IMG/VR virus record: IMGVR_UViG_3300031555_002663
Coordinates: 9,985 to 73,984 of that record
Direction: 5' to 3' (one strand)
DNA: 64,000 nt
Source of the DNA: a virus
Taxonomy: Duplodnaviria; Caudoviricetes
A model generated the notes under the pieces. It made no database searches. It worked only from the letters and a program-made list of their open reading frames with translations, and was not told the origin of the DNA. A program made the position numbers and the translations under genes. Positions within the stretch are counted from its first letter, which is position 1. Every line of letters begins with the position of its first letter. Below are positions 5,396-18,126 of this stretch, in pieces.

Positions 5396-5583
5396 ATATA
5401 TGTCCTCCTTTATCACTTTATATATATATTATACCATATTTTTTTCAAAATGTCAAGTTTTTCTTTTGACGCGAACATAGAGAGGGGAGAGATATTTTTT
5501 GCTCTTCTGGATTAGCTCTGGAGGAGCTCAAATATGCCGTTTGAGCAAAGGAGAGATCAGTTTTTGTGTGAATTAAATTAATA

Positions 5584-5782
5584 CCGATCGGCGCCCATCT
5601 CTTTTTTTATATAATAACATATTTTTTATTTTATGTCAAATCCGAGCGCATATGGCGAACCGATCGGCCCCCGCCCAGTGGAGGAGCTAAGATGAGGACC
5701 GATCGGCCTTTCGGGAAAAACTGGGCGCATATGTCGGAGGCGCTAGAAGTCTCGAAATTTTTGCATATGGATACCCGATCGG
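5584..5782. repeat. cluster of CCGATCGG palindromes and GCATATG motifs in non-coding DNA
   Basis: CCGATCGG at 5584, 5660, 5699, 5775 (also 4870); GCATATG at 5648, 5727, 5763. Confidence 0.85.
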
Positions 5783-5787
5783 AAAAT

Positions 5788-5814
5788 CGGGCCCTGCCTG
5801 CCGTCGAGGGCCCG
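5788..5814. repeat. GC hairpin family copy H1 (27 bp)
   Basis: CGGGCCC-13nt-GGGCCCG followed by CC and a minus-strand promoter. Confidence 0.75.
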
Positions 5815-5888
5815 CCGTATCCCTGTCTTAATTATACCACAAGTCGGACCATTTGTCAATAGGTATTTTCAACAAAAAAATCGCTCAA

Positions 5889-6074
5889 TTAAGAGCGATT
5901 TTCGGCAATCATTTTGTTCACTTCGTCAAGGGTCAAGTGCTGGTTACAACCCCAGCAAGCCATGTCCCCGCCCTCGCAGATGTCACAATCGGCACCAATG
6001 CAGGGCTTTGGAGTATTTACCGCATAATGCGGATTGCGGACACAGTCCGCGCAAACGCAACCTTTACATCCCAT
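5889..6074 (-). CDS. small Cys-rich protein
   Basis: 61 aa with CxxCxCxxC and CxxC; GGAGG SD. Confidence 0.7.
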   Translation of the reverse strand: MGCKGCVCADCVRNPHYAVNTPKPCIGADCDICEGGDMACWGCNQHLTLDEVNKMIAENRS

Positions 6075-6270
6075 AGACCTTTGCCTCCAATCTCGGCTTC
6101 CATTCTTCCCACAGGGTAATGAGTTCGGCTTCTTTGTCCCAATCATTAACCTCTGCCATTGCAAATTCTAATGCTCCGAACGCCTGAGCAAGGAAGTTCT
6201 GACCGCCTTCGGGATACTGCTCGATGCTCTGCTCTTTGCGTTCCCAGTATTTAATCAGTTTCTCTTTCAT
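6064..6270 (-). CDS. hypothetical protein
   Basis: 68 aa after promoter and AAGGTGATACCATG start. Confidence 0.75.
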   Translation of the reverse strand: MKEKLIKYWERKEQSIEQYPEGGQNFLAQAFGALEFAMAEVNDWDKEAELITLWEEWKPRLEAKVYGM

Positions 6271-6343
6271 GGTATCACCTTTCCTTTCTGATACTATTAT
6301 ACCGCAAAAGGGGCGATTTGTCAACCCCTTTTGCGAAAGTTTT

Positions 6344-6949
6344 TTAGAAAGGTAACTCGTGAGTTTCTGCAGCGTACTCGCAAGCAATGTTCATGTATTC
6401 CTCGGTAATAGAAGGAATGTCAAGGAAAGAACGGCTTGCCATGTAGTCTGCCATGTGTACACAGCGGTCAATGTTGGTGGAAGGTCGGTCTTCCTTGTTA
6501 GTAGACCACTGACCCATGTGAGCCTTCATTGCATCAAGCAGGTATTCGCTCGGTGCATAGTCGGTGTAATGGGTGCAGTACATCATGAAAGCATAGGCGG
6601 CATTTGCGGCGTGGTCTTTGTACTGGGTCTTGTCGTACTCGCCTAAACCATACTTTTGAGTGTCGTGCATGATGCAAGCGGCAATCACATAGTCCTTGTG
6701 TTCGGGCTTCATGTATGCGTAACTGCTCATTCGCAGAAGTTCCTCGGCGAACATGACCACGGCTTTAGTGTGGCGAACCAGACCGCCCATGCCCTGAGAA
6801 AATGCAGGGTGATATTTGCCACTACTGGAAGCACCGTCCGTCCAGAAGTAGTCGGGTACAGCTTCTTCCATGTAGCCTTTGACAGCCATGCGAAGGTCTT
6901 CATTTACGATGAGGTCGATTTCTCTTTCAAACAGCTTGATAGTTTTCAT
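6344..6949 (-). CDS. HD-domain phosphohydrolase
   Basis: ASSSGKYH...GGLVRHT...HDTQK...HMG...HMADY motifs. Confidence 0.85.
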   Translation of the reverse strand: MKTIKLFEREIDLIVNEDLRMAVKGYMEEAVPDYFWTDGASSSGKYHPAFSQGMGGLVRHTKAVVMFAEELLRMSSYAYMKPEHKDYVIAACIMHDTQKYGLGEYDKTQYKDHAANAAYAFMMYCTHYTDYAPSEYLLDAMKAHMGQWSTNKEDRPSTNIDRCVHMADYMASRSFLDIPSITEEYMNIACEYAAETHELPF

Positions 6950-7088
6950 TTTGCGGTGTCCTTTCTTTTAGAGCTCCTGCTCTCTTGATTACATACTTAT
7001 TATACCACCGTTTCGGGATTTTGTCAACACCTTTTGGAAAAATATTTTTCGGAAATTTTTTTTCTAAAACCCTTGACAAATCGAAATT

Positions 7089-7114
7089 CCGCCCGGACGC
7101 CTGTGTGCGGGCGG
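7089..7114. repeat. GC hairpin family copy H2 (26 bp)
   Basis: CCGCCCG-12nt-CGGGCGG; preceded by TTGACA without a clear -10. Confidence 0.75.
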
Positions 7115-7189
7115 CTCAAGCCAATAGGCAAAATGCACAAAAAAAGAGCCGACCCTAAAAAGGGTGGCTCTTGTGAGAGGGAGAGGGGC

Positions 7190-7561
7190 TTACTCCGCAA
7201 GGGAGAAGTAAGCCTTTCTCTTGTCCTCAGTGCGGACAACGATGCCATCGTCCTTCATCTGGCGAAGCAGAGCGGACACTCTCTGGTTGCTGAGTTCAGC
7301 ACACTCAGGGATTTCCTTCTGGATTTCGGTCACAGTGTAAAGGCGGTTGGGTTCCATACCCTCAGCGATAGCGGTCTTAATGCCCTCGTTGGCAGTCTGC
7401 TGAGCGGTAGGCTTTTTCTCAGCGGAGTTCTTGCGGTTGAGCAACTCAACCTCGTGGTCGATGAAGGCGATAACCTCATCGTAGTTGTCTGCGGTTGCAG
7501 GGTAAGCCGCACGGATAATTGCGAAGTAGTCCTTCTTAGTCATCTTCTTAGTATTAGCCAT
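7190..7561 (-). CDS. winged-helix DNA-binding protein, paralog A1
   Basis: C-terminal YTVTEIQ...ELSNQRVSALLRQMKDDGIVVRTEDKRKAYF; true start at 7561 after promoter and conserved TIR. Confidence 0.8.
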   Translation of the reverse strand: MANTKKMTKKDYFAIIRAAYPATADNYDEVIAFIDHEVELLNRKNSAEKKPTAQQTANEGIKTAIAEGMEPNRLYTVTEIQKEIPECAELSNQRVSALLRQMKDDGIVVRTEDKRKAYFSLAE

Positions 7562-7654
7562 AGTATCAAATCCTTTCTGGTTTTCTAAGGGTTTTCCTTC
7601 CCTTACTGTACTTACATTATACCATACTTCTAAGGGTTTGTCAAGGGGTTTCGC

Positions 7655-7880
7655 AAACTTTTTTTCTCGACTTACTGCGTCCATTAGACGTTTCACTTCA
7701 TCATGTCTATCACTCTTGCCGTTGGCGAAGTGCCACATTGTGGTGTTTCCCATTGGCTCAGATAGTCCGCCCGATAGTTACTGCGTGTAGTCGCCTTACT
7801 GCGGAATAAGTGGCTTACTTCCTCTACTAACCGAAGTGTGCACCCCTCGGCTTTCTTGGGCTACCGCCCCTTGACTATCT
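7655..7880 (-). ncRNA. candidate structured non-coding RNA 1
   Basis: Own promoter (TTGACA-17-TACAAT), no SD-led ORF, 8-bp closing helix AGAUAGUC/GACUAUCU, several internal hairpins, three CGCAGUAA motifs. Confidence 0.5.
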
Positions 7881-7929
7881 TTATTGTACCACAAACCTTT
7901 CGGTTTGTCAATACCTTTTTCAAAACTTT

Positions 7930-8108
7930 TTGAAAAAGTTTTGGCTTGTGTATCCTGCGTATCCACGACATTTTTTCAGCCTGCGTGGTCTGGTTCACAT
8001 TTGTATACCGCAAACAGGAACACCTTGCGGTCGGGTCTTGGGGAATCGGTCTTACTGACTCACACGGGTCACACCTTTTTGGCTTTGCCATTCCCTCGCC
8101 TTTTGTAT
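7930..8108 (-). ncRNA. candidate structured non-coding RNA 2
   Basis: Own consensus promoter; helices GGGAAU/AUUCCC, ACCGCAA/UUGCGGU, CCACG/CGUGG; the only ORF runs through the next promoter. Confidence 0.4.
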
Positions 8109-8290
8109 CTTTATTATACCACATCGGGAGCGGATTGTCAAGACCTTTTTCAAACTTTTTTCAAGTTTTTTCATCTTGCCTTTTGGCGGCTAGCCCCTCT
8201 CCCTTGGGACAATTATAGTATACTACATTGAATGCAGTTTGTCAATAGTTTTGGGAAAAATAATTTCTTTTTTTATTTTCGCAAAACCCC

Positions 8291-8354
8291 TTGACAAAAT
8301 GGCTGGCGGCATGGTATAATAAAAATTCGGCCCAGCGCGCTCGTCGCCGGGCCG
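8291..8354 (+). promoter_or_regulatory. + strand promoter with GC hairpin H3
   Basis: TTGACA(8291)-18-TATAAT then CGGCCC-15nt-GGGCCG (8328-8354), faced by a minus-strand promoter. Confidence 0.8.
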
Positions 8355-8468
8355 CCAATTATACCACATCAGCTTGCATTTGTCAATAGTTTTTTGAAAA
8401 AAAATAAATTTTGTGCAAAAAAGAGAAAAAATCTCCGATTTCTCGGAGATTTTTGTAAGATTTGCCGA

Positions 8469-8867
8469 TTATTTCGGCTTTCTTTTCTGCACAAGGGTCA
8501 ATTCATAGGCATTTTCACCAATTTTGAAAGCAATTTGGCGTTCTTTGTTGGTGATTTCGACATTTTCGCAAGCATTTTCGCTGTTTTCGGTCAAAAACTT
8601 GGCAAGTTCGGCAATGATAGAGCCTTTTGTGGGGTTTTCCTTTCGGCTACGCTGTCCACCTGTGTTGTCTAACTTGTAGACGGGAGGGGTTTTGCGTGTC
8701 CCTGCGTTCCTTGCTTTTTTGCTTGCTTTTTCCTGTTCGGGAGAGAGTTCAAAGAGTTTTGCACCTTTGTCAATCTGTTCATCACACTTGATTACATCGT
8801 CAATCTCTTCCTGTGTGAAGCCTAAACTACGCATGGCTTCAATCTGCGACTTTTCAACTTTTGCCAA
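8469..8867 (-). CDS. hypothetical protein, paralog B1
   Basis: TTG start after AGGGGA; clearly homologous to 10757..11143. Confidence 0.8.
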   Translation of the reverse strand: MAKVEKSQIEAMRSLGFTQEEIDDVIKCDEQIDKGAKLFELSPEQEKASKKARNAGTRKTPPVYKLDNTGGQRSRKENPTKGSIIAELAKFLTENSENACENVEITNKERQIAFKIGENAYELTLVQKRKPK

Positions 8868-8986
8868 AGCGTCATCCCCTTTCCTTGATTACATACTAAT
8901 TATACCACATCAAAGGCGATTTGTCAATAGGTTTTGCAAAAAAGTTTTTGGAGAGAGGGAGAAATTTCTCCCTCTCTCTGTTAGGC

Positions 8987-9346
8987 TCACGCCTTGGAGA
9001 AATACGCCTTACGCTTCTCCTCAGTACGAACCACCTTGCCGTCATCCTTGAGCTGACGCATCAGAGCAGAAACACGCTGATTGGACAACTCGGCACACTC
9101 GGCAACTTCTTTCTGAATTTCGGTTACGGTGTACAGACGGTTAGGCTCCATGGCTTCCAGAATGGCTTCCTTGATACCCTCGTTGGCAGTCTGCTGGGCA
9201 GTCGGCTTCTTTTCAGAGGCGTTCTTCTTCGCCAACAGTTCCAGTTCATGGTCGATGAACTCCACCAACATCTCATTACCTGCAACCTCGGGGATAACCT
9301 TGAGCATCTCGAACTTCTCACGCTTCGTAATCTTCTTCATAGTCAT
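8987..9346 (-). CDS. winged-helix DNA-binding protein, paralog A2
   Basis: Same KKPTAQQTANEGIK and LSNQRVSAL motifs as A1. Confidence 0.85.
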   Translation of the reverse strand: MTMKKITKREKFEMLKVIPEVAGNEMLVEFIDHELELLAKKNASEKKPTAQQTANEGIKEAILEAMEPNRLYTVTEIQKEVAECAELSNQRVSALMRQLKDDGKVVRTEEKRKAYFSKA

Positions 9347-9662
9347 AGTATCAACTTCCTTTCTTGCGTTGGTCGCAACCCTTATTGTATCTTTATTATA
9401 CCATACTCGGTTGAGTTTGTCAAGAGGTTTTTTGAAATTTCCTAAAGTTTTTTTCTTTCGGCTCTTGACTTTCTTTCCCTTTCTGTATCTTTATTATACC
9501 ATACTCGGTTAGGTTTGTCAATACCTTTTTGAAAACTTTTTGAAATTTTTTTCTGACCTCTTGGAGTTCCTCTCCCTTGGTACATTATTATTATACCACC
9601 ACTCCCCCACATTGTCAACACTTTTGGGAAAAATAAAAAAATAAAAATTTTCGCAAAAACTC

Positions 9663-9724
9663 TTGACAAAATTTGTGCCGCGTGGTATAATGGTGAATTC
9701 GGCGCCCATCGACCGTGGGCGCCG
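9663..9724 (+). promoter_or_regulatory. + strand promoter with GC hairpin H4
   Basis: TTGACA(9663)-17-TATAAT then CGGCGCCCA-7nt-TGGGCGCCG (9700-9724). Confidence 0.8.
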
Positions 9725-9765
9725 CGCCAAAGTCAATAGGCAAATTGCACAAAAAGCAAAATCCC

Positions 9766-10248
9766 TTAAAGGGATTTGCTTTCAGAAACGAAATACTTTC
9801 CGTTGTGCTTTTCGATGAAGTTTTTGATGATAGTGCTTTCAGCCTGAGTGTGAGAGTAGAAGTCAACTTCGTAATACTTTACAATGTCATTGTACTTGTA
9901 ACCAATGTCGTTGACCTTGCCCCACTCTTTCAACTCGGCAATCAAATTATCGTCGTGCTTGAAAGTGGTTTCAATCTTCCACAACTTGTCTTTGCGTGCC
10001 TTTTCCTCGCCCCACTTGACAAGGAACACGCCGACCACATTACACACAAAAGTGATAATACATTTCTGCCACATAGGGAAATCGGCAACCGTGTAAATCA
10101 TCATAATGTTATAAAATGCGAAATAGCCACCAGAAATCAGACTTGCCGCAATCTTACTGCCGTTAATGGTTACGATGGAGCGAATAGTGGAGAATACCAC
10201 ATTCACAATGGAAAGTCCGACAAACACCAACAAAAATTCGTAGTTCAT
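9766..10248 (-). CDS. membrane protein resembling UPF0316/DUF5698
   Basis: N-terminal TM region IVNVVFSTIRSIVTING.K.AASLI and a small soluble C-domain. Confidence 0.55.
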   Translation of the reverse strand: MNYEFLLVFVGLSIVNVVFSTIRSIVTINGSKIAASLISGGYFAFYNIMMIYTVADFPMWQKCIITFVCNVVGVFLVKWGEEKARKDKLWKIETTFKHDDNLIAELKEWGKVNDIGYKYNDIVKYYEVDFYSHTQAESTIIKNFIEKHNGKYFVSESKSL

Positions 10249-10347
10249 AGTATCAACTCTCTTTCTTACTTTCTATAATTATTATAACATAATTTTAATG
10301 ATTTGTCAATAGGTAAATGCTAAATTATTTGTTTTTTTCTCTTCCTT

Positions 10348-10506
10348 TTAAGCAAGGAAGAGAAATTTAGCCAAATAGGCAAAAGCCATGATTTCAATGC
10401 CGAACCACACCATTAAGCCACCACAATCACTGTCGATAGCCTTTACAAATTGTGCAGATAACTGAAATACAAAGATAATTAAAATAACAAGATTAAAACT
10501 ATTCAT
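10348..10506 (-). CDS. small membrane protein (52 aa)
   Basis: Read manually; promoter and AAAGGGGA SD upstream, TAA stop. Confidence 0.6.
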   Translation of the reverse strand: MNSFNLVILIIFVFQLSAQFVKAIDSDCGGLMVWFGIEIMAFAYLAKFLFLA

Positions 10507-10606
10507 AACTCATTTCCCCTTTCTGTAATTACATTATACACCCACTACTGGAAACTGTCAAGGGTTTTAGGAAAAAAAGTTTTTTAATTTATTTTACATT
10601 TTTCTC

Positions 10607-10669
10607 TTGACAAATTGCGTGGACTGGGGTATAATTAAAATTCCGGCCGCAACGTGCGTGAGCGGCCGG
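10607..10669 (+). promoter_or_regulatory. + strand promoter with GC hairpin H5
   Basis: TTGACA(10607)-17-TATAAT then CCGGCCGC-11nt-GCGGCCGG (10643-10669), faced by a minus-strand promoter. Confidence 0.8.
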
Positions 10670-10756
10670 CCAATTTTACCACATTCATTTGGATTTGTCA
10701 ATAGGCAAAATGCACAAAATTTTCATTTGGTAAAATTGCACAAAAAAAATGCCCCC

Positions 10757-11143
10757 TCAAGAGCGGGGGGCACTCAACACGATTTTGTACTTTTTGCCGT
10801 TCCAGTCGAACACAAATTCACGTTCAGGGTTCAGCACTTCAAGGCTTTTGCAGTCGGCTTGGTCGCTGATGGTCTTGGTCAACAGTTCAATCAAACCGCC
10901 CTTGACATCATCTGCCTTTTTATTGCGCTTTCCTTTGGAATTGTCCAGACTGTAAACAGTGGGTTTGCGCTCGGCTTGTCTTGCCTTCTTTGCGCCCTTT
11001 TCTAACTCTGGGGGCAACTCGAACAGCTTTTCGCCTCGGTCAATGCGCTTGTCATCTTCCAAAACCTGTTTGATTTCTTCCTCGGTCATTCCGAGATTTC
11101 GCATGGCTTGAATTTGCTTTTCATTACTTGCCATCTTCATCAC
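10757..11143 (-). CDS. hypothetical protein, paralog B2
   Basis: QIQAMRNLG.T.EEI...IDRGEKLFEL...KKARQA shared with B1. Confidence 0.8.
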   Translation of the reverse strand: MMKMASNEKQIQAMRNLGMTEEEIKQVLEDDKRIDRGEKLFELPPELEKGAKKARQAERKPTVYSLDNSKGKRNKKADDVKGGLIELLTKTISDQADCKSLEVLNPEREFVFDWNGKKYKIVLSAPRS

Positions 11144-11227
11144 CTGTCCTTTCTGTACTTATAGTATAGCACAAGGTGGAAGGTTTGTCAAGGGGTTTTT
11201 TGAAAAACCCCTTGACTTTTTCCTTCA

Positions 11228-11590
11228 TCAGATAGCCTTGAAGTAAGCCTTGCGCTTATCTTCAATTCTCTCAACCTTGCCGTCATCCTTCATCTGACGA
11301 AGCAGAGCAGATACACGCTGGTTAGACAGTTCTGCCATACCCTCGCAGTTCTTCTGAATGTCGGTAACGGTCATCATCTCGCCGCTTTCAGCAAGGAAGT
11401 CATAGATGGTGTCCTTCAGACCTTCATTTGCCACCTGCTGTGCAGTGGGCTTCTTCTCGCTTGCGTTCTTCTTGGCAAGCAGGTCGAGTTCGTGGTCGAT
11501 GAATTCGACAAGCATTTCGTTTGCGGAAACTTCGGGGATAGCCTTCAGCATTTCAAACTTTTCTCTCTTAGTCATCTTCTTGTTCATCAT
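11228..11590 (-). CDS. winged-helix DNA-binding protein, paralog A3
   Basis: Same family as A1 and A2. Confidence 0.85.
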   Translation of the reverse strand: MMNKKMTKREKFEMLKAIPEVSANEMLVEFIDHELDLLAKKNASEKKPTAQQVANEGLKDTIYDFLAESGEMMTVTDIQKNCEGMAELSNQRVSALLRQMKDDGKVERIEDKRKAYFKAI

Positions 11591-11828
11591 AGTATCATTC
11601 TCCTATCTCGTGTTAGGTCACGACCCATTTTTTTATCTGTAAGAGGCTTCCCTCTTTACATTCTTATTATACCATACTTGGTGAGGTTTGTCAAGGGGTT
11701 TTTCAAACTTTTTTAAAGTTTTTTTCTTGGAGGTTTTGTTTCTCTCTCCCTCTCACTGTAATCATTATACCACAGTGAGAGGGGTTTGTCAAGAGGTTTT
11801 TAAAAAGTTTTTTGAAAAACTTTTCAGA

Positions 11829-12488
11829 TTAGAAACGGCACTTTACATTGTTAAAGCGGTAGGGAGTGTCGCCCTTGTGTGCATTTCGAGTGAATTTGCG
11901 GTGAGTGTTCCAAACTGCACGCAGGATTTCAACTTCGATTTCGCAGTCAGCGAGAGCGGTGTGTTCTTCGACAAACTCAATCTCTCCGCTGATGAAACGA
12001 TAGCAAATTTCAGCGGACATCTGAATGTTGCCCTTTGCAGTTACAAAGCCATTTTCGGCACAGAATTTGTTATACTTTGCATACTGTCCGATAGTTTCAA
12101 AGAAAGCGAGCCAGGTGTCAACAAATTCCATTCCCTCAATGCACTCTGCAACGAAAGTCTTGTTGAAGTCAAAGCCAGAGTTGTGAGCGCAGGCGCAGGA
12201 AACATCGTTGGAAGTAAGCCAGTTGGAAAAGATTTCCTTTGCTTCATCTTCATTGTAGCAAATGACAGTTGCAGGGTTCTTGAGCAAGTCACGGTAATAA
12301 TCTTTCTTATACTTGCCATAGAAAGCACTATCGAGCATTAAGTTGCCGATAACTACAATGTCAATGCGGTCAATTTCGCCCCTCTTGGAGAGGGCAATGC
12401 CAGCGCAGTGGTAGGTAGGGCAATGAGCCTGAGCCGCACCGCCGAGGGTTTCAGTATCAATTACAGCAAAAATCTTTTCCTTAAACAT
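11829..12488 (-). CDS. DEDDh (DnaQ-like) 3'-5' exonuclease
   Basis: VIDTET (ExoI), AHNSGFD (ExoII), HTALAD (ExoIII); start after conserved TIR. Confidence 0.85.
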   Translation of the reverse strand: MFKEKIFAVIDTETLGGAAQAHCPTYHCAGIALSKRGEIDRIDIVVIGNLMLDSAFYGKYKKDYYRDLLKNPATVICYNEDEAKEIFSNWLTSNDVSCACAHNSGFDFNKTFVAECIEGMEFVDTWLAFFETIGQYAKYNKFCAENGFVTAKGNIQMSAEICYRFISGEIEFVEEHTALADCEIEVEILRAVWNTHRKFTRNAHKGDTPYRFNNVKCRF

Positions 12489-12725
12489 GGTATCAAATCC
12501 TTTCAAATTAGTGATTGAGGTTTGCCATCGCTCTCTCAACCTTACATACTTATTATACCACAGGTCGGTCGGTTTGTCAAGAGGTTTTTTGAAAGTTTTT
12601 TAATTTTTTTTTCTAACCTCTTGGAACTCCGTTCCCTTACCTTGTATACTTATTATACACCCAACGGCTGAAAATGTCAAGGGTTTTGGGAAAAATAATT
12701 ATTAAAAAAATTTTCGTAAAAAGTC

Positions 12726-12789
12726 TTGACAAATTGCGTGGGAAGTGGTATAATAGAAAATTCGGCGCGCCACAATCGTCCGCGCGCCG
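12726..12789 (+). promoter_or_regulatory. + strand promoter with GC hairpin H6
   Basis: TTGACA(12726)-17-TATAAT then CGGCGCGC-11nt-GCGCGCCG (12763-12789). Confidence 0.8.
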
Positions 12790-12936
12790 CCGAAATTTGT
12801 CAATACCTTTTTTGAAATTTGTGCAAAATGACGAAAATCCCAACCCGAAATGGATTGGGATTTTCATCAAGAAAGAGAGAGGGAAGGGGGTGGAAAATAG
12901 TGGGATGGGGCTGATTAGCTCAACCCCCGAGAAGCC

Positions 12937-13191
12937 TTACCAGCAGATGGTGTAATTGCCGAAACTGCTGTGAACAGTGAAACCGCTCTGCTCAAGGTAA
13001 GCCTTAAGGAAAGTCCATTCAATGTTCCTTGTCTTTGTAAAAGTGGCTTCTCTCCTGCCGTGCTTTGCGGCATCTTCAAGGGCAGGTCCGATGACTTCTT
13101 CTGCATACGCCATTGCCCTATTCATCTTTGCAGTTTCACGCTCACCCTGTATCTGTGTAGCGACTGCTTCTAACTCTTTTGCATTTTTCAT
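12937..13191 (-). CDS. hypothetical protein
   Basis: 84 aa, own promoter and conserved TIR. Confidence 0.8.
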   Translation of the reverse strand: MKNAKELEAVATQIQGERETAKMNRAMAYAEEVIGPALEDAAKHGRREATFTKTRNIEWTFLKAYLEQSGFTVHSSFGNYTICW

Positions 13192-13246
13192 GGTATCAAC
13201 TCCTTGTCCTTTTGTACCTTAATTATACCACATGAGGAGGGGTTTG

Positions 13247-13552
13247 TCAACCCCTTTCCTCAAATTCTTTGAGAATTTTTGCGGCTTCGGCGATTGCCTG
13301 CTTGAAACGACCTGACAGCTCATGCTCTCCGCAACAGTCCATTTCATCAGCAATGTGTTCTTTTACTTTGTTCAGCTCATCGCCAAACTGAGTGGCGTAC
13401 TTGGCAAAGCAGACGCAGGGCATGGAGCCGATTTTGTCAACATAGATTTCCAGTGCTTCGCCCTCGCGGATGCCACACTGTCTGCGGATTTCCTTGGGGA
13501 TTACAACTCTGCCGAGGTCATCAACACGGCGAATAATTCCAGTAGCTTTCAT
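13247..13552 (-). CDS. AbrB/SpoVT-family transcription regulator
   Basis: MKATGIIRRVDDLGRVVIPKEIRRQCGIREGEALEIYVD is the canonical swapped-hairpin domain. Confidence 0.9.
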   Translation of the reverse strand: MKATGIIRRVDDLGRVVIPKEIRRQCGIREGEALEIYVDKIGSMPCVCFAKYATQFGDELNKVKEHIADEMDCCGEHELSGRFKQAIAEAAKILKEFEERG

Positions 13553-13629
13553 AGTATCAATTCCTTTCTTGTTTGTGTCTTAATTATACCACATTTCGGG
13601 AGGTTTGTCAAGGGGTTTTTTGGAAGTTC

Positions 13630-14076
13630 TCAAAGATTTTTGAGAACTTCCATGATGTTCTGCACATCGTAGGCTCTGCCCGTCCAGTTGTCACGGTTCT
13701 TTGCTTCATCGTCAAAGAGAATGTCAAGAGGATTTTCGCAGAAGTTCTGCTTCGGTGTACCGTAAGGGACGATTGTAATTCTATCCCAATTCACAGAGGG
13801 AAGATGTTCGGCAAGCCAACGCATTTTTGCTTCGGTGACTGCTTCGTTATAGGCTTCGCTTCCACTCTTGGAAAGCCAAGAGATAACAGCGATTTCATAA
13901 CCTGCTCTCTGGAGTGCGTTTAACTTACGAGCCAGAGTGCAAAGGCGAAGCAGAGGATTTGCGTTTGCGTAGGGGAATACATCTTCATTGATAAGGTATT
14001 CGAGCCAGTTTTCAACGCCGTAAAGGTCAGCAATCGTGCCGTCCATGTCAAAGTTAATAGTAATGTTCATCTTCAT
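13630..14076 (-). CDS. HAD-superfamily hydrolase, 5'(3')-deoxyribonucleotidase-like
   Basis: FDMDGTIAD motif I, W(L) cap segment, ILFDD motif IV. Confidence 0.8.
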   Translation of the reverse strand: MKMNITINFDMDGTIADLYGVENWLEYLINEDVFPYANANPLLRLCTLARKLNALQRAGYEIAVISWLSKSGSEAYNEAVTEAKMRWLAEHLPSVNWDRITIVPYGTPKQNFCENPLDILFDDEAKNRDNWTGRAYDVQNIMEVLKNL

Positions 14077-14146
14077 AGTATCAATTCCTTTCCTTACTTT
14101 CTATAATTATTATACCACCGATTGACCGATTTGTCAAGGGGTTTTC

Positions 14147-14578
14147 TTAAATTTCTTTCTGAAATTTTACCCAAGTTTCGTAGTAGTCTTTTTCTACGCT
14201 CTTGGAATAGCCTTCTTTCTGGTAGCCTTCTTCAATGAACTTGTGCATTTTGTAGTCAAATTTCATTGCCCATTTACGCAGATGCAGAGGGGCTTTTCTC
14301 CATAGGTTACTGTAACCCCAATCCATGCAGTAGTAAAAAGCATTATCTTCTTCGACCCATTCGAGAATGTAGGGCAGAACATGGTCAAGCACCTTGCAAG
14401 CGGTTTCTTCGCTCCACTCTCTACGATTGTAAGCCCATTCAGATGCCTTGTCGTAAGCAACCACAAAGGGAATGAGGGGTAGTGCCCAGATGTAATAGCT
14501 GTACTTTTTGCCGTGGATTACATACCACTTTCTTTTGGATTTATTCTCTCTTGTCTTTGCGTATTCAAAATCTTTCAT
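14147..14578 (-). CDS. hypothetical protein
   Basis: 143 aa, own promoter and GGGAG SD. Confidence 0.75.
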   Translation of the reverse strand: MKDFEYAKTRENKSKRKWYVIHGKKYSYYIWALPLIPFVVAYDKASEWAYNRREWSEETACKVLDHVLPYILEWVEEDNAFYYCMDWGYSNLWRKAPLHLRKWAMKFDYKMHKFIEEGYQKEGYSKSVEKDYYETWVKFQKEI

Positions 14579-14683
14579 GTTTGTTTCTCCCTTCCTTTAC
14601 TGTATCTATAGTATACCATACCCGCCCGCATTTGTCAATAGTTTTAGGAAAAATAATTATTTTATTTTTTTTTGATTTTTCTC

Positions 14684-14745
14684 TTGACAAAATGTGCAGG
14701 CTGTGGTATAATGGAAATAACGCGCGCCTGGGTCGTGGGCGCGCG
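14684..14745 (+). promoter_or_regulatory. + strand promoter with GC hairpin H7
   Basis: TTGACA(14684)-17-TATAAT then CGCGCGCC-9nt-GGCGCGCG (14721-14745). Confidence 0.8.
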
Positions 14746-14797
14746 GCCGAAAAAGAAAAACCGCCCCCATTTCGGGAGCGGTTTCTGCAAGGGGAAA

Positions 14798-15046
14798 TCA
14801 AATTCCCCAAGCAGTCATCATCATCCAACCCAGAATCATCATCGTCCATTCCTCGGTGATGTAATCCTCTTCGGCGTTGGCGGTTACATAGACCTCACCA
14901 GTGTAGCCATCGACCACATCAACGGGAGCGCCGTTGGTTGCGTGTTCCATCAGAGCACAGATGGCAACATCAGCGGAGTTGGTGGCAACAGTAATGTCGC
15001 AGTCCTCGTAGTGAGCAGTTACATAGTAAGCAGAAGTGTTCATCAT
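14798..15046 (-). CDS. hypothetical protein
   Basis: 82 aa from the conserved TIR; the ORF-track extension crosses its promoter. Confidence 0.75.
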   Translation of the reverse strand: MMNTSAYYVTAHYEDCDITVATNSADVAICALMEHATNGAPVDVVDGYTGEVYVTANAEEDYITEEWTMMILGWMMMTAWGI

Positions 15047-15125
15047 AGTATCAAATCCTTTCCTTTTTTGTATCTTAATTATAGCACAGAGCAGATGATT
15101 TGTCAAGGGGTTTGGAGAAGATTTT

Positions 15126-15344
15126 TCAATCTTCTCCGACACAACTTCTACAAAAGATGTTACCCTCTTCGTCAATCATTGCAGAAGGAAGAATCATCGA
15201 GCTGTCACAGCACTGGCATCTGACAATCATCGGCAGGTCATTGGCGAAGAACCATTCGCCGTTAATCTGTCCCTTCGGCATTTCTACGCCGATGTTTTTC
15301 TTAATCCACTTTTCAGCGGTGAGAATCTTTTTAGTGTTAGCCAT
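15126..15344 (-). CDS. small Zn-ribbon protein
   Basis: CQCC...CRSC; N-terminus MANTKK identical to paralog A1. Confidence 0.75.
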   Translation of the reverse strand: MANTKKILTAEKWIKKNIGVEMPKGQINGEWFFANDLPMIVRCQCCDSSMILPSAMIDEEGNIFCRSCVGED

Positions 15345-15434
15345 GGTATCAATTCCTTTCCTGTTTTCTGATACTATTATACCATACTCTGAGCAGTTTG
15401 TCAATAGGTTTTTGAAAAGTTTTTAATTGGCTCT

Positions 15435-15851
15435 TTAGAAAGAGCCAATCTGTGTGATGCCTTGGTCTTTCAACCATTCGCAGAACTGGTCGGCAGGAAG
15501 TAAGTCAACAAGGTCTTTCATGGTGTACCATCTGGTCACTTCCATCTTTTCCCATTTCACACGAATAGGCTCAAAAGTCTTTTCAGTGAGTTCAGTGTTG
15601 TTTCTTTCAATGTCGCCCCAGTGAATTTCAATGGTAGGACGACCACGAAACAGAGTGAAACCAGTTTCGGCATTTCTAATCATGTTGCGTTCAATCGCTT
15701 CACATGCTTCGGCAAATGTGCCGTAGTAGTATTCTGTACTGTTGGAACTACCTTCCATTTCAATGTAGCGAATGTGGCTCCAGATGGAAGTGTCACAGAA
15801 GTCGCTGTTTCCGATTGCTACGGAACATCTAAGGTCAATAAGTTTTTTCAT
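15435..15851 (-). CDS. hypothetical protein
   Basis: 138 aa, promoter and TIR. Confidence 0.8.
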   Translation of the reverse strand: MKKLIDLRCSVAIGNSDFCDTSIWSHIRYIEMEGSSNSTEYYYGTFAEACEAIERNMIRNAETGFTLFRGRPTIEIHWGDIERNNTELTEKTFEPIRVKWEKMEVTRWYTMKDLVDLLPADQFCEWLKDQGITQIGSF

Positions 15852-15911
15852 AGTATCAATTCCTTTCTCTCTTGCTTTCTGTAATTATTATACCACACAT
15901 TAGGGGCTTTG

Positions 15912-16238
15912 TCAACCCCTAATTGTGAAAAGTTCGGGATGTCTTTTGCAATTTTTAGTGATGCGTTTTTCCATGCGAGGGGACATTTGCCCTTTACCTG
16001 CCATTCTGTACAGTTTGTATCCCTGAGATACTGTTGCCATGAATGCAGTAATTACAATGTCACGATACAGATTCTTTACTACGATAATTCCGCTACTGGT
16101 CAGAATGTATCTTTTTTCTTCTTCAACTACTGCAACTTCGAGAACTGCATTGGTGAAGCCGAGGACTTCTTCGAGAGCCTGCAGGCGGTTTGCTCTTTCT
16201 ACTCCTGCGTGGAAGGTGGTGTTGTGGATGGTAGTCAT
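15912..16238 (-). CDS. hypothetical protein
   Basis: 108 aa from AAGGACTTGATACAATG. Confidence 0.75.
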   Translation of the reverse strand: MTTIHNTTFHAGVERANRLQALEEVLGFTNAVLEVAVVEEEKRYILTSSGIIVVKNLYRDIVITAFMATVSQGYKLYRMAGKGQMSPRMEKRITKNCKRHPELFTIRG

Positions 16239-16308
16239 TGTATCAAGTCCTTTCTTGTTTCCCTTTGTTGTATTTATTATACCACGGAGAAGGGGTTTTG
16301 TCAACCCC

Positions 16309-16662
16309 TTATTTGAAAAATTCTCCGTAATTTTTTCTGTTTTTTCCACACTTGAAAGCGCACAGACCGAGTTCGCACAGCTGATTGTAGAAGGGGTCTT
16401 CGTAAGGAACTTTGAACCATTCAGTTTTCTTGCCGTCAATGGTAGCAACTACCATTTCATAACCCATTTTGACGATTTCCTTGTGGAACAGACCTTCCAC
16501 AAAATGCTTGCTCTTTTCCATGGTCTTTACATAGCTAATGCAACGGACTTCGGGGTTGTGTGTAGTGTAAGCATTGAAGCGGTTTGCAAGGTCGCTTGCA
16601 AAACCAGCCTTGAACAGGGCGTAGTTCTTCTTTTCATCCATCATCAGATACACAGAATTCAT
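16309..16662 (-). CDS. T5orf172/MUG113-like GIY-YIG family protein
   Basis: VYLM...KAGFASDLANRF...VEGLFH...TEWF. Confidence 0.7.
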   Translation of the reverse strand: MNSVYLMMDEKKNYALFKAGFASDLANRFNAYTTHNPEVRCISYVKTMEKSKHFVEGLFHKEIVKMGYEMVVATIDGKKTEWFKVPYEDPFYNQLCELGLCAFKCGKNRKNYGEFFK

Positions 16663-16761
16663 TTTAATTTACCTCTTTCTTTCTCTTGTTGTTTTCCCTT
16701 GTTGTTGTATTTATTATAGCATGGAAGGGGCTGTTTGTCAACCCCTTTTTTCAATTTTGTT

Positions 16762-16935
16762 TTAATTATTTTCAGCAAATTCAGTAAGCATTACAAATGC
16801 ATTGTATTCACTGTGTACAGGATTGGGCATGGTGTTGTCTGCGACGATGTCTACCCAACTGGCTACAAGCCACAACATGAACAACACATTTACTAAACAC
16901 CACAATCTACCTAACCACTTCATCATTGTCATCAT
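16762..16935 (-). CDS. small membrane protein (57 aa)
   Basis: Read manually; promoter and GGGAG SD, hydrophobic N-half. Confidence 0.6.
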   Translation of the reverse strand: MMTMMKWLGRLWCLVNVLFMLWLVASWVDIVADNTMPNPVHSEYNAFVMLTEFAENN

Positions 16936-17110
16936 CTCCCTTTCTTTAATACTATTATAGCATTACGGGAGATTGTTGTCAATAGTTTTTTTACAACTTT
17001 TTTTAGTTTTTTTACTGTAGCACTTTAGCGCGCTAAAGCTAGGGCTCCAGCGGCCCTGCTCGGCGCCAACGGCACACAAAGAAAAAGAGAGGGCTTTCAC
17101 CCTCTCTTGA

Positions 17111-17440
17111 TTAAGGCATGATGTGCTTAACACAGATGACTTCTTGGCAATCATCACACACCCAATAGTATTTATCTCCACCATTCTTTACATGGTCAGC
17201 ACTCTTGAACTCCCACGCCTGTCCGCACTCATGGCATACGCCATTGTTCCACGCCTTCTCGTCGTGTGCGCTCTCTGCCCACATCACACCTGTCATGAGG
17301 AGACCGAAGGCCACAGCCACAAGCACACCTACCACACCACGCACCCACGGCTTGCTGTTGTCCATGTTGCTGGTTACCATGAGGGAGAAGAAGCTCCCCA
17401 CGATGCTACATACTACTACGCTAAAGATGAATACTCCCAT
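17111..17440 (-). CDS. membrane protein with C-terminal Zn ribbon
   Basis: Two TM segments, CHEC and CDDC. Confidence 0.75.
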   Translation of the reverse strand: MGVFIFSVVVCSIVGSFFSLMVTSNMDNSKPWVRGVVGVLVAVAFGLLMTGVMWAESAHDEKAWNNGVCHECGQAWEFKSADHVKNGGDKYYWVCDDCQEVICVKHIMP

Positions 17441-17555
17441 TGTTCCTACCTCTTTCTTTGTGTTGTTCTTTCCTTTACTGTACCTTTATTATACCACACT
17501 ACTGGTTATTTGTCAAGGGGTTTACACAAAGTTTTTTGCACAAATTAAGAGAGGC

Positions 17556-17942
17556 TCAATGAGCCTCTCTCCATACCTTTACAATGATGTCGTCCTCTGT
17601 ATTGTTAGGTGTGTGGTTGTCTGCTATCCACAAGAGCAAGAAGTCATCAGCCTGCACAGGCTCTTCGATGTACCACACATCGCCTGTCTCATCCTCTACC
17701 AGCTGACGCTCGTACTGCCATGCCCCCACCATGCGGATGGTGCCATCGCTGAAGTCCCCGCACCAGTTATCCTCGATGATAGAGGTATCAAAACCCCCGC
17801 TCTGCTCTACCACAGGAGCCTCTACGGCAGATGCCTGCACAGGAGTTATTGCCTGCATGAACAGAACTACAGCGAACAGAAACGCTACAGCACCAAGTGC
17901 CATGCCAATGCTCAAGGTTACATCTCTCAAAGTCTTCTTCAT
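17556..17942 (-). CDS. secreted or membrane-anchored acidic protein
   Basis: Signal-peptide-like N-terminus (VQASA); first gene of the leftward cassette array. Confidence 0.75.
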   Translation of the reverse strand: MKKTLRDVTLSIGMALGAVAFLFAVVLFMQAITPVQASAVEAPVVEQSGGFDTSIIEDNWCGDFSDGTIRMVGAWQYERQLVEDETGDVWYIEEPVQADDFLLLWIADNHTPNNTEDDIIVKVWREAH

Positions 17943-18099
17943 AGTTATCATTTCCTTTCCTCTTTGTTGATACTATTATACCATGCTACTGGCTTGTTGT
18001 CAATAGGTTTGTGCAAATTATTTTGGGAATTTTTTAAGTTTGTCAGATTGCACAAAAATTTGTCGAGAAGTTTGTGCAGACTGCCAATTGCGTAAAACT

Positions 18100-18126
18100 C
18101 GGCTCGCCACGTCCGGCGCCGAGCCG
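18100..18126. repeat. GC hairpin family copy H8 (27 bp)
   Basis: CGGCTCG-13nt-CGAGCCG preceded by AAAACT. Confidence 0.7.

Follow-up and report, generated by a model that had tools for sequence, protein, structure and literature searches.

A family of polar hairpins tied to backward promoters may punctuate the early genes of an uncultured phage

The early-gene array of an uncultured phage (Duplodnaviria; Caudoviricetes), IMG/VR record IMGVR_UViG_3300031555_002663, carries eight short G+C-rich hairpins, and five of them begin just after a promoter that points against the genes and serves no open reading frame (ORF). Here, we analyze bases 9985 to 73984 of that linear 73,984-base record, which has an estimated completeness of 38%, and we refer to this whole stretch of 64,000 nucleotides (nt) as the window. 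We tentatively propose that each hairpin forms the structured heart of a conserved, roughly 120-bp cassette that acts as inter-gene punctuation, or as an insulator (attenuator), in the early array. As judged from its sequence, the cassette most likely serves to stop transcription leaking from one gene into the next rather than to encode small RNAs. In the direction of the genes it consists of the terminator of the previous gene, the G+C hairpin, an ORF-less backward sigma-A promoter, an A+T-rich stretch of 45 bp, and the promoter of the next gene. The strongest result is a rule of orientation that ties the hairpin to the backward promoter across relatives.

All eight hairpins listed in an earlier reading of the DNA (here, the original prediction) were recovered, both by an exhaustive stem scan and by an independent covariance model (Table 1). 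The model, R1, was built from 66 copies from other phages and from no copy in the window. When scanned over the 64 kb, R1 matched exactly the eight hairpins, all on the plus strand (51 to 20.8 bits; expect value [E], 2.8e-16 to 2.2e-4). The next match had an E of 1.4, and minus-strand readings of the eight sites reached only 10 to 11 bits. Because every match is on the plus strand, the family has a polarity, and all copies share one orientation relative to the genes, whether or not they have a promoter. Six of the hairpins have perfect G+C stems of 7 to 9 bp, those at 8328 and 18100 each have one mismatch or bulge, and the folding energy of the eight lies between -13 and -19 kcal/mol (z, -1.6 to -4.5). 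Elsewhere in the window, the gene terminator at 10750 is the one other perfect G+C stem of at least 7 bp, with five weaker 6-bp stems reaching the scan threshold, and the first 10 kb of the 74-kb record contains no such hairpin. Each of the eight lies 60 to 100 nt before a gene promoter. Their length, claimed to be always 25 to 27 nt, is so in the window and not across relatives, where 27 nt is the mode and the range is 21 to 40 nt.

The hairpins are a true family with compensatory changes in the stem, as the covariance model and a comparison with shuffles confirm. The family consensus is AAAUU-CGGCnCGC..CG..CGU..GCGnGCCG-CCaAA, and it contains the A-rich leader, the CC or GCC tail, and the CGT in the loop that had been noticed in the window alone. 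In a 66-row alignment, both sides change in seven of the eight stem pairs, with 114 such cells versus 33 in shuffles, and the signal was lost when the stem partner was slid along. Moreover, orthologous copies show a compensated change from T-A to G-C at stem position 9 (related loci L032, L041, and L080 versus L034). We conclude that stem pairing is under selection and that the variety of pair types is real. Neither strand is preferred (stability, 79 versus 73 copies; G-U pairs, 64 versus 75; P = 0.72). The loop has semiconserved positions (C11 G12 .. C15 G16 T17). It is not palindromic, which makes a site for a symmetric dimer on duplex DNA less likely, and pairing inside the loop (11-16, 12-15, 10-17) was no higher than expected. 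Rfam gave no match at the gathering score in the 64 kb, and at an E of up to 1 the hairpin region gave only subthreshold terminator-like matches and no CRISPR-DR family. The hairpin therefore belongs to no Rfam family. Mimicry of a CRISPR repeat, which had been raised as a possibility, is unlikely, since all the stems differ and no CRISPR-DR match appeared even at that lenient E.

The promoters around the hairpins are as had been predicted. Five hairpins follow a plus-strand promoter that is a perfect 12/12 match to TTGACA-17/18-TATAAT, with 7, 8, 7, 8, and 8 nt between the end of the -10 box and the hairpin, and no further perfect plus-strand promoter was found in the 74-kb record beyond the five in Table 1. 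All five are back-to-back with a gene promoter, with 45 to 46 bp between the -35 boxes. In addition, H3 and H5 are faced by a second, minus-strand promoter whose -10 box lies 3 nt from the other side of the hairpin. When six units were aligned, homology spanned the gene promoter, the A+T-rich spacer, and the antisense promoter and ran into the hairpin, where the stems vary and the loop (C)GT is constant. The units sit in a region dense in such promoters. There are 34 perfect TTGACA-17/18-TATAAT promoters in the whole record and all but one are inside the early array (5428-18003, 12.5 kb), which has 33 (28 minus and 5 plus strand), versus one in the other 61 kb. Nearly every short early gene is preceded by a perfect sigma-A-type promoter of its own.

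Table 1. Hairpins, promoters, and terminators of the early array (positions in the window)
Feature	Position	Strand	Remarks
Hairpin H1	5788..5814	+	27 nt; perfect 8-bp stem; -16 kcal/mol; R1 31.1 bits, E 2e-8; no antisense promoter
Hairpin H2	7089..7114	+	26 nt; short-form unit; R1 28.7 bits, E 1.7e-7
Hairpin H3	8328..8354	+	27 nt; A-C mismatch on plus strand (G-U on minus); R1 38.3 bits, E 3e-11; face-to-face promoters
Hairpin H4	9700..9724	+	25 nt; 9- to 10-bp stem; R1 27.8 bits; -19.4 kcal/mol, z -4.45
Hairpin H5	10643..10669	+	27 nt; R1 49 bits, E 1.8e-15; face-to-face promoters
Hairpin H6	12763..12789	+	27 nt; R1 51 bits, E 2.8e-16
Hairpin H7	14721..14745	+	25 nt; R1 36.7 bits; adjoins U-tract of gene terminator 14786-14756
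Hairpin H8	18100..18126	+	27 nt; imperfect stem; no antisense promoter; R1 20.8 bits, E 2.2e-4; z -1.56, weakest copy
Antisense promoter of H3	8291..8320	+	12/12, TG-extended; no ORF after it
Antisense promoter of H4	9663..9691	+	12/12, TG-extended
Antisense promoter of H5	10607..10635	+	12/12
Antisense promoter of H6	12726..12754	+	12/12, TG-extended
Antisense promoter of H7	14684..14712	+	12/12, TG-extended
Gene promoter back-to-back with that of H3	8217..8245	-	11/12; 45 bp between -35 boxes
Gene promoter back-to-back with that of H4	9590..9618	-	
Gene promoter back-to-back with that of H5	10533..10561	-	
Gene promoter back-to-back with that of H6	12652..12680	-	
Gene promoter back-to-back with that of H7	14610..14638	-	11/12
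Gene-strand promoter facing H3	8358..8386	-	12/12
Gene-strand promoter facing H5	10673..10701	-	11/12; -10 box TAAAAT
Terminator of gene 8469-8867	8427..8454	-	Bidirectional; RNA from H3 antisense promoter would stop here, about 135 nt
Terminator of gene 9766-10248	9759..9777	-	About 85 nt from H4 antisense start
Terminator of gene 10757-11140	10752..10769	-	No T-run on plus strand
Terminator of gene 12937-13191	12833..12865	-	Bidirectional by sequence
Terminator of gene 14798-15046	14756..14786	-	Abuts H7

The cassette is widespread among relatives, many of them phages of Firmicutes from the gut and the rumen. Searching with the pattern TTGACAAA-N12-14-TGGTATAAT-N5-6-TTCGGC gave 85 exact matches in IMG/VR, on at least 76 contigs, many of them 100 to 190 kb. 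The same search gave 38 matches in metagenome bins, which come from rabbit, yak, sheep, deer, and human gut and from digesters and are mostly labeled Bacillota. The strong link of the hairpin to ORF-less antisense consensus promoters, posed as a matter of conservation by the original prediction, is borne out in more than 100 related contigs. The phage and all the relatives found are uncultured. Near and distant DNA searches with the region or with one unit gave no match among cultured phages, and the pattern found no unit in the three complete phages closest by terminase (Phass-1, Enterococcus VRE9_4, and Geobacillus E3). At the related loci we found 1,407 distinct near-consensus promoters, with a G+C stem 7 to 8 nt past the -10 box in 142 and 2 to 4 nt past it (a facing arrangement, H3 and H5 included) in 54. 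The distance from the -10 box to the start of the hairpin is thus 7 to 8 nt for 142 of 169 cases.

Orientation separates the two kinds of promoter. Promoters were called antisense or sense by the strand of the plain promoters next to them, a measure that replaced orientation by ORF length, which was too noisy; plain promoters neighboring the units had the opposite orientation in 1,288 cases and the same orientation in 88. In the IMG/VR relatives, a hairpin placed 6 to 9 nt past the -10 box accompanies 143 of 235 antisense promoters versus 3 of 893 sense promoters. In the set of metagenome bins, drawn by the same DNA pattern, the hairpin is on 40 of 49 antisense promoters versus 2 of 266 gene promoters. 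The loci were chosen by the pattern of promoter plus CGGC, and orientation played no part in their selection. Moreover, the consensus of the antisense promoter in 118 relatives has a perfect -35 box, TRTG, and a perfect -10 box, as it does in the window, and we conclude that the antisense promoter is under selection. A special operator in its spacer was considered and rejected, as the conserved bases proved to be the Gram-positive TRTG -16 motif and nothing more. We found no gene family linked to the antisense promoter, as the 140 genes that face it fall into 87 clusters.

The hairpin outlives the antisense promoter. About half of the hairpins in relatives and three of the eight here (H1, H2, and H8) have an antisense promoter that is decayed or absent. 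Such copies nevertheless have the orientation and the loop motif of the others, and in relatives their polar logo is unchanged (C1 G3 C6G7 C11G12 C15G16T17 C21G22 G27). Where the antisense promoter is decayed or shortened, the next gene promoter is 60 to 65 nt away instead of 80 to 100 nt, and H2 (62 nt) and H8 (97 nt) fall into the first and the second of these spacing classes. H2 retains an antisense -35 box (7074-7079) and lacks the spacer and the -10 box; the -35 box of the next minus-strand gene promoter is 62 nt off, a spacing class of 60 to 65 nt also seen in relatives. Read along the genes, H8 precedes the first array promoter (18003-17975) by 97 nt. H1 sits where the array ends downstream, 16 nt past the -10 box of the minus-strand promoter 5859-5831. 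Beyond H1, three copies of CCGATCGG lie in 5640-5790, each close to GCATATGG or CATATG, and CCGATCGG/GCATATGG/CATATG motifs likewise follow H1-type hairpins in L032, L049, and L009, the context of H1 being repeated in L032 and L049.

How the cassette might work can be proposed from its anatomy. We propose that ordinary terminators leak in this array because some 30 perfect promoters drive it. The backward promoter would begin its transcript at the foot of the hairpin and fire polymerases head-on at the read-through. As the hairpin is palindromic, it could form in the nascent RNA of polymerases arriving from either side. A polymerase trapped at the hairpin would then suffer collision and release at the gene boundary, and the next promoter would be spared from being run over. 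The 45-bp A+T-rich stretch may serve as a common upstream element of both promoters. Where the terminator of the previous gene works in one direction only, the cassette would also damp that gene by antisense transcription. Polymerases can remain on DNA after termination and then restart in reverse (PMC6978322), and such polymerases could feed the antisense promoter. We infer the firing of the antisense promoter, pausing, collision, and insulation from sequence. That the hairpin may work from both sides is suggested by the absence of a strand difference in stability or G-U pairs and by the gene-strand promoters that face it. Such promoters, 2 to 4 nt before the hairpin, account for 44 of 893 in relatives, in addition to those at H3 and H5. 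In these two units and in 24 to 26 related ones, a stretch of about 25 to 30 bp is the meeting point of two consensus promoters. Finally, a proper U-tract is found on neither strand, which fits a collision or pause element better than an intrinsic terminator.

Several observations weigh against this proposal. A canonical terminator precedes most copies, and the need for extra insulation is assumed. The constant 7 to 8 nt between the -10 box and the hairpin could have been inherited from a common ancestor of the cassettes and need not be a sign of selection. The percentage of paired positions is inflated because the stems were preselected as palindromes. A pure pause or collision element does not account for the semiconserved, nonpalindromic positions in the loop, and they hint at a sequence-specific partner. 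Moreover, about half of the copies lack a working antisense promoter, and thus the hairpin must have a role that is independent of head-on polymerases.

The hairpins could instead be back-up terminators of the gene strand, in which case the antisense start at the hairpin foot would be incidental. Every copy indeed lies past the end of a gene and 60 to 100 nt ahead of the next gene promoter, the hairpin outlasts the antisense promoter, and on the gene strand AATTT or TTTTT follows the hairpin, promoter-less copies often having a clean T-run. Some copies do resemble tandem terminators: in L014 and L009, which are relatives of higher G+C content, the 27-nt hairpin comes after a canonical terminator, leads into TTTTT, and lacks an antisense promoter, and the family thus includes true tandem-terminator-like members. 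The U-tracts are weak, however, and usually begin with AA; gene-strand tails are of the AAUUU type and average 3.0 to 3.3 T in 8 nt. When the minus strand was scanned for terminators (G+C stem, loop of 3 to 8 nt, and at least 5 U in 8), one of the eight hairpins, H3, passed and so counts in favor of termination. Moreover, a canonical terminator already stands a few bases before most copies, and the canonical terminators of the same loci have loops of 3 to 8 nt and varied sizes, unlike the conserved loop positions and 27-nt mode of the family. Gene-strand promoters 2 to 4 nt ahead of a hairpin would also be terminated at once. If the hairpins were back-up terminators, the antisense promoter would need a separate job. 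It might boost its neighbor, by shared upstream-element contacts or by the supercoiling of divergent transcription, or recapture polymerases after termination, and the constant 45 to 46 bp between the divergent -35 boxes is consistent with such a role. On balance, we think it unlikely that the hairpins are mainly terminators, the outcome that the original prediction named as refuting it.

Alternatively, the RNA itself may be the product. The antisense promoters could make abundant small or antisense RNAs whose 5'-terminal stem-loop guards against 5'-end-dependent decay, acting either in trans, as decoys that occupy an RNA-binding protein or a nuclease of the host or the phage, or in cis, as antisense RNAs to the 3' portion of the early gene that converges on them. 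The position of the hairpin at the expected transcript start, or within 1 to 2 nt of it, in 142 of 169 cases speaks for such a product, and 5' stabilizers reportedly require a terminal stem-loop with almost no unpaired leader, as Emory, Bouvet and Belasco in 1992 and Sharp and Bechhofer in 2005 are said to have found. The loop positions are semiconserved and strand-polar, the promoter is perfect, conserved, and the unit's own as judged by sequence, and three or four of the five window units meet bidirectional terminators that would yield RNAs of 70 to 135 nt. What is missing is a conserved 3' end. The first terminator past the hairpin in relatives is oriented for the convergent gene (58 sense-only, 34 bidirectional, and 1 antisense-only, by a classifier that misses some weak gene terminators). 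Bidirectional terminators are not enriched beside the antisense promoter (34% versus 30% elsewhere; P = 0.56). Since these terminators are the convergent gene's own, a defined short RNA is not a conserved property of the unit. Neither sequence nor structure is conserved beyond the 5' hairpin, and the facing genes are unrelated. The original prediction of a dispersed family of small RNAs of 65 to 135 nt thus gained only partial support, as there is neither a conserved terminator of the unit's own nor anything conserved beyond the hairpin.

Other features also count against an RNA product. Hairpins remain where promoters have decayed, G-U pairs show no strand bias, and neither Rfam nor the CRISPR-repeat families gave a match. 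Moreover, the forward geometry occurs on only 3 of 893 gene promoters, and the hairpin is therefore not a general stabilizer. We consequently doubt that the RNA is the product. We speculate, as a more remote idea still, that several strong early promoters per genome make G+C hairpins of a set shape and loop motif, with a 5' triphosphate, that titrate a host RNA-binding factor, for example a nuclease or an RNA-sensing defense protein. If this were true, the hairpin-capped transcripts would be a new class of phage RNA decoy.

The flanks of the cassette are mosaic. The related locus L135 and the window contain homologous genes in a different order, one 219-amino-acid protein being 82% identical. 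Around H7, homology to L135 runs from the U-tract just before the hairpin, through the antisense promoter, to the next -35 box. The L135 ortholog of H7 differs by one base in the loop, and the terminators and genes on both sides are unrelated. Likewise, among near-identical units from different loci, 16 of 23 pairs have an unrelated flank on one or both sides. The tetramer AATT often stands at either edge of the unit. Because the cassette stays constant while its neighbors differ, we propose that, in addition to its role in punctuation, it may be a recombination linker by which gene cassettes are shuffled. We also note tandem gene-strand promoters about 100 bp apart with no gene between them (9618/9521/9423, 12680/12580, and 11792/11694). 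The orphan leaders at these sites (9380-9620, 12540-12680, and 11660-11800) are alike (CCAAGGGAGAGG...CCAAGAGG), and the tandem promoters look like scars of cassette recombination.

Perhaps the main role is at the level of DNA, the unit being chiefly a recombination linker or else a cruciform or single-strand hairpin site recognized by a nuclease, recombinase, or replication protein. Relatives have their cassettes in shuffled order with breakpoints flanking the unit, the tandem promoters with orphan leaders resemble recombination scars, stability is equal on both strands, and the T4 promoter-early stem-loop (PeSL) cassettes provide a precedent (PMC2839356, PMC4122927). The stems differ within one genome, however, which gives less rather than more homology for recombination, and Pfam found no recombinase or HUH nuclease gene in the array. 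Stems of 8 to 9 bp with loops of 7 to 11 nt are poor at cruciform extrusion. Finally, a role in transcription is indicated by how strictly orientation is kept and by the perfect match of the antisense promoter. We regard a mainly DNA-level role as very unlikely.

Known systems resemble parts of the cassette. The T4-type PeSL was thought to be the nearest named analogue, and the shared architecture and shuffling behavior confirm it (Arbiol et al. 2010, PMC2839356; Comeau et al. 2014, PMC4122927). In both, small composites of promoter and stem-loop are repeated between nonessential early genes of a large phage, the promoters are of the host sigma-70-type consensus, and the unit is conserved while the flanking genes differ, with ties to modular shuffling; PeSL cassettes were proposed as recombination linkers for such shuffling (PMC2839356, PMC4122927). 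A PeSL, however, is a terminator and then a promoter, both for the gene strand, and has no antisense promoter, whereas five of the eight copies here have an extra ORF-less backward promoter that starts at the hairpin. The stems here are G+C-only and covarying, with a 27-nt mode, a polar loop motif, and a weak U-tract. Moreover, the host here is probably a member of the Bacillota, whereas T4-like phages infect Gram-negative bacteria, and the sequences are unrelated.

The cassette is also like the synthetic "terminator plus antisense promoter" part, in which a terminator in the gene direction is followed by a strong constitutive promoter firing back. That part is engineered; the cassette would be a natural, conserved counterpart with a palindromic hairpin at the antisense +1 and an antisense promoter fused back-to-back with the promoter of the next gene. 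Head-on collisions at defined gene boundaries need an RNA stem-loop (Wang, Watters, Ju and Liu, bioRxiv 10.1101/2022.10.23.513370). As in such collision-driven bidirectional terminators, a stem-loop that lacks good U-tracts and can form in either RNA would lie between opposed streams of polymerases, the convergent transcription here being deduced from promoters. In Escherichia coli, the streams come from two real genes, and here one would come from a gene-less promoter that starts at the stem-loop. Intrinsic terminators share a G+C-rich stem at a gene end and, for some copies, T-runs after it on the gene strand, and they differ in that the hairpins here often have loops of 7 to 11 nt, a weak U-tract starting AA, and a conserved loop motif and orientation. 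Face-to-face promoters with overlapping 5' ends are known from IS10 (pIN/pOUT) and coliphage 186 (pR/pL). At H3 and H5, both promoters could likewise not be occupied together and the RNAs would overlap at their 5' ends; here the overlap is the hairpin alone, with no ribosome-binding site or switch gene, and most units have no facing promoter. We conclude that a conserved, ORF-less antisense promoter starting at a covarying, polar hairpin is new and that the unit is otherwise a variant of composite promoter/stem-loop cassettes.

The array that holds the cassettes stands out from the rest of the record. Bases 5456-18003 are 41 to 47% G+C, and the rest of the window is mostly 28 to 37%, locally up to 41%. 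Array genes are short, are on the minus strand, and share a near-identical ribosome-binding stretch, GAAAGGAATTGATACTATG. Pfam matches in the array are HD, NT5C, MazE-like, T5orf172, and a weak winged helix, and nothing else. The late and structural genes (21356-64000) are all on the plus strand, and the antisense promoters of the early array aim toward them. A tRNA scan found none. The large terminase is about 50% identical to terminases of 134- to 142-kb Enterococcus and Geobacillus phages, and it also matches that of the human-gut phage Phass-1, classed in the "Caudoviricetes code 15 clade." A host in the Bacillota is suggested by the TG-extended consensus promoters and by the taxonomic labels of the bins in which relatives were found. 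The phage is probably a large, TAG-recoding, siphovirus-like phage of Bacillota.

We note other features of the array. A motif, TTGTGCAA/TTGCACAA, often in the form CAATAGGCAAAWTGCACAAAA, is repeated at 7120-7140, 8405-8420, 9733-9750, 10698-10745, 12808-12828, and 17990-18085, between gene terminators and hairpins and ahead of the array. In related loci the same place has TGCATAATTATGCA palindromes and GTGTTAAA repeats, and these motifs are candidate operator sites. A very hydrophobic ORF of 52 codons at 10348-10506 (minus strand) has a promoter and a terminator to itself and resembles a small membrane peptide. The minus-strand stretch 7941-8227 is led by a promoter and has no convincing ORF, a 76-codon frame (8091-7861) crossing the next promoter; it is 79% identical over 293 nt to L135:5680-5969 and thus is conserved. 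A second promoter-led stretch on the minus strand (7655-7876) has CGCAGTAA repeats and no ORF. Structured RNA at 7655-7876 and 7945-8106 was considered and found no support, as the folds had z values of -0.47 and 0.02 versus shuffles. Finally, the terminator of gene 17111-17440 is followed by a G+C-rich region (17020-17078) with a perfect 16-nt palindrome, CTTTAGCGCGCTAAAG; R1 did not match it, and it is outside the hairpin family.

If the proposed mechanism holds, the cassette would be a natural, standardized insulator part in which a gene-less promoter, fused to a two-way hairpin, fires against read-through. To date, designs of this kind come only from synthetic biology or, where both promoters serve real genes, have been inferred in E. 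coli. The cassette is short and portable, and it offers a signature for locating the early regions of this group of phages. Ultimately, it would explain how about 30 identical promoters of maximal strength can operate side by side in one phage without mutual interference and how early-gene cassettes shuffle in the large, uncultured, stop-codon-recoding phages of animal guts.

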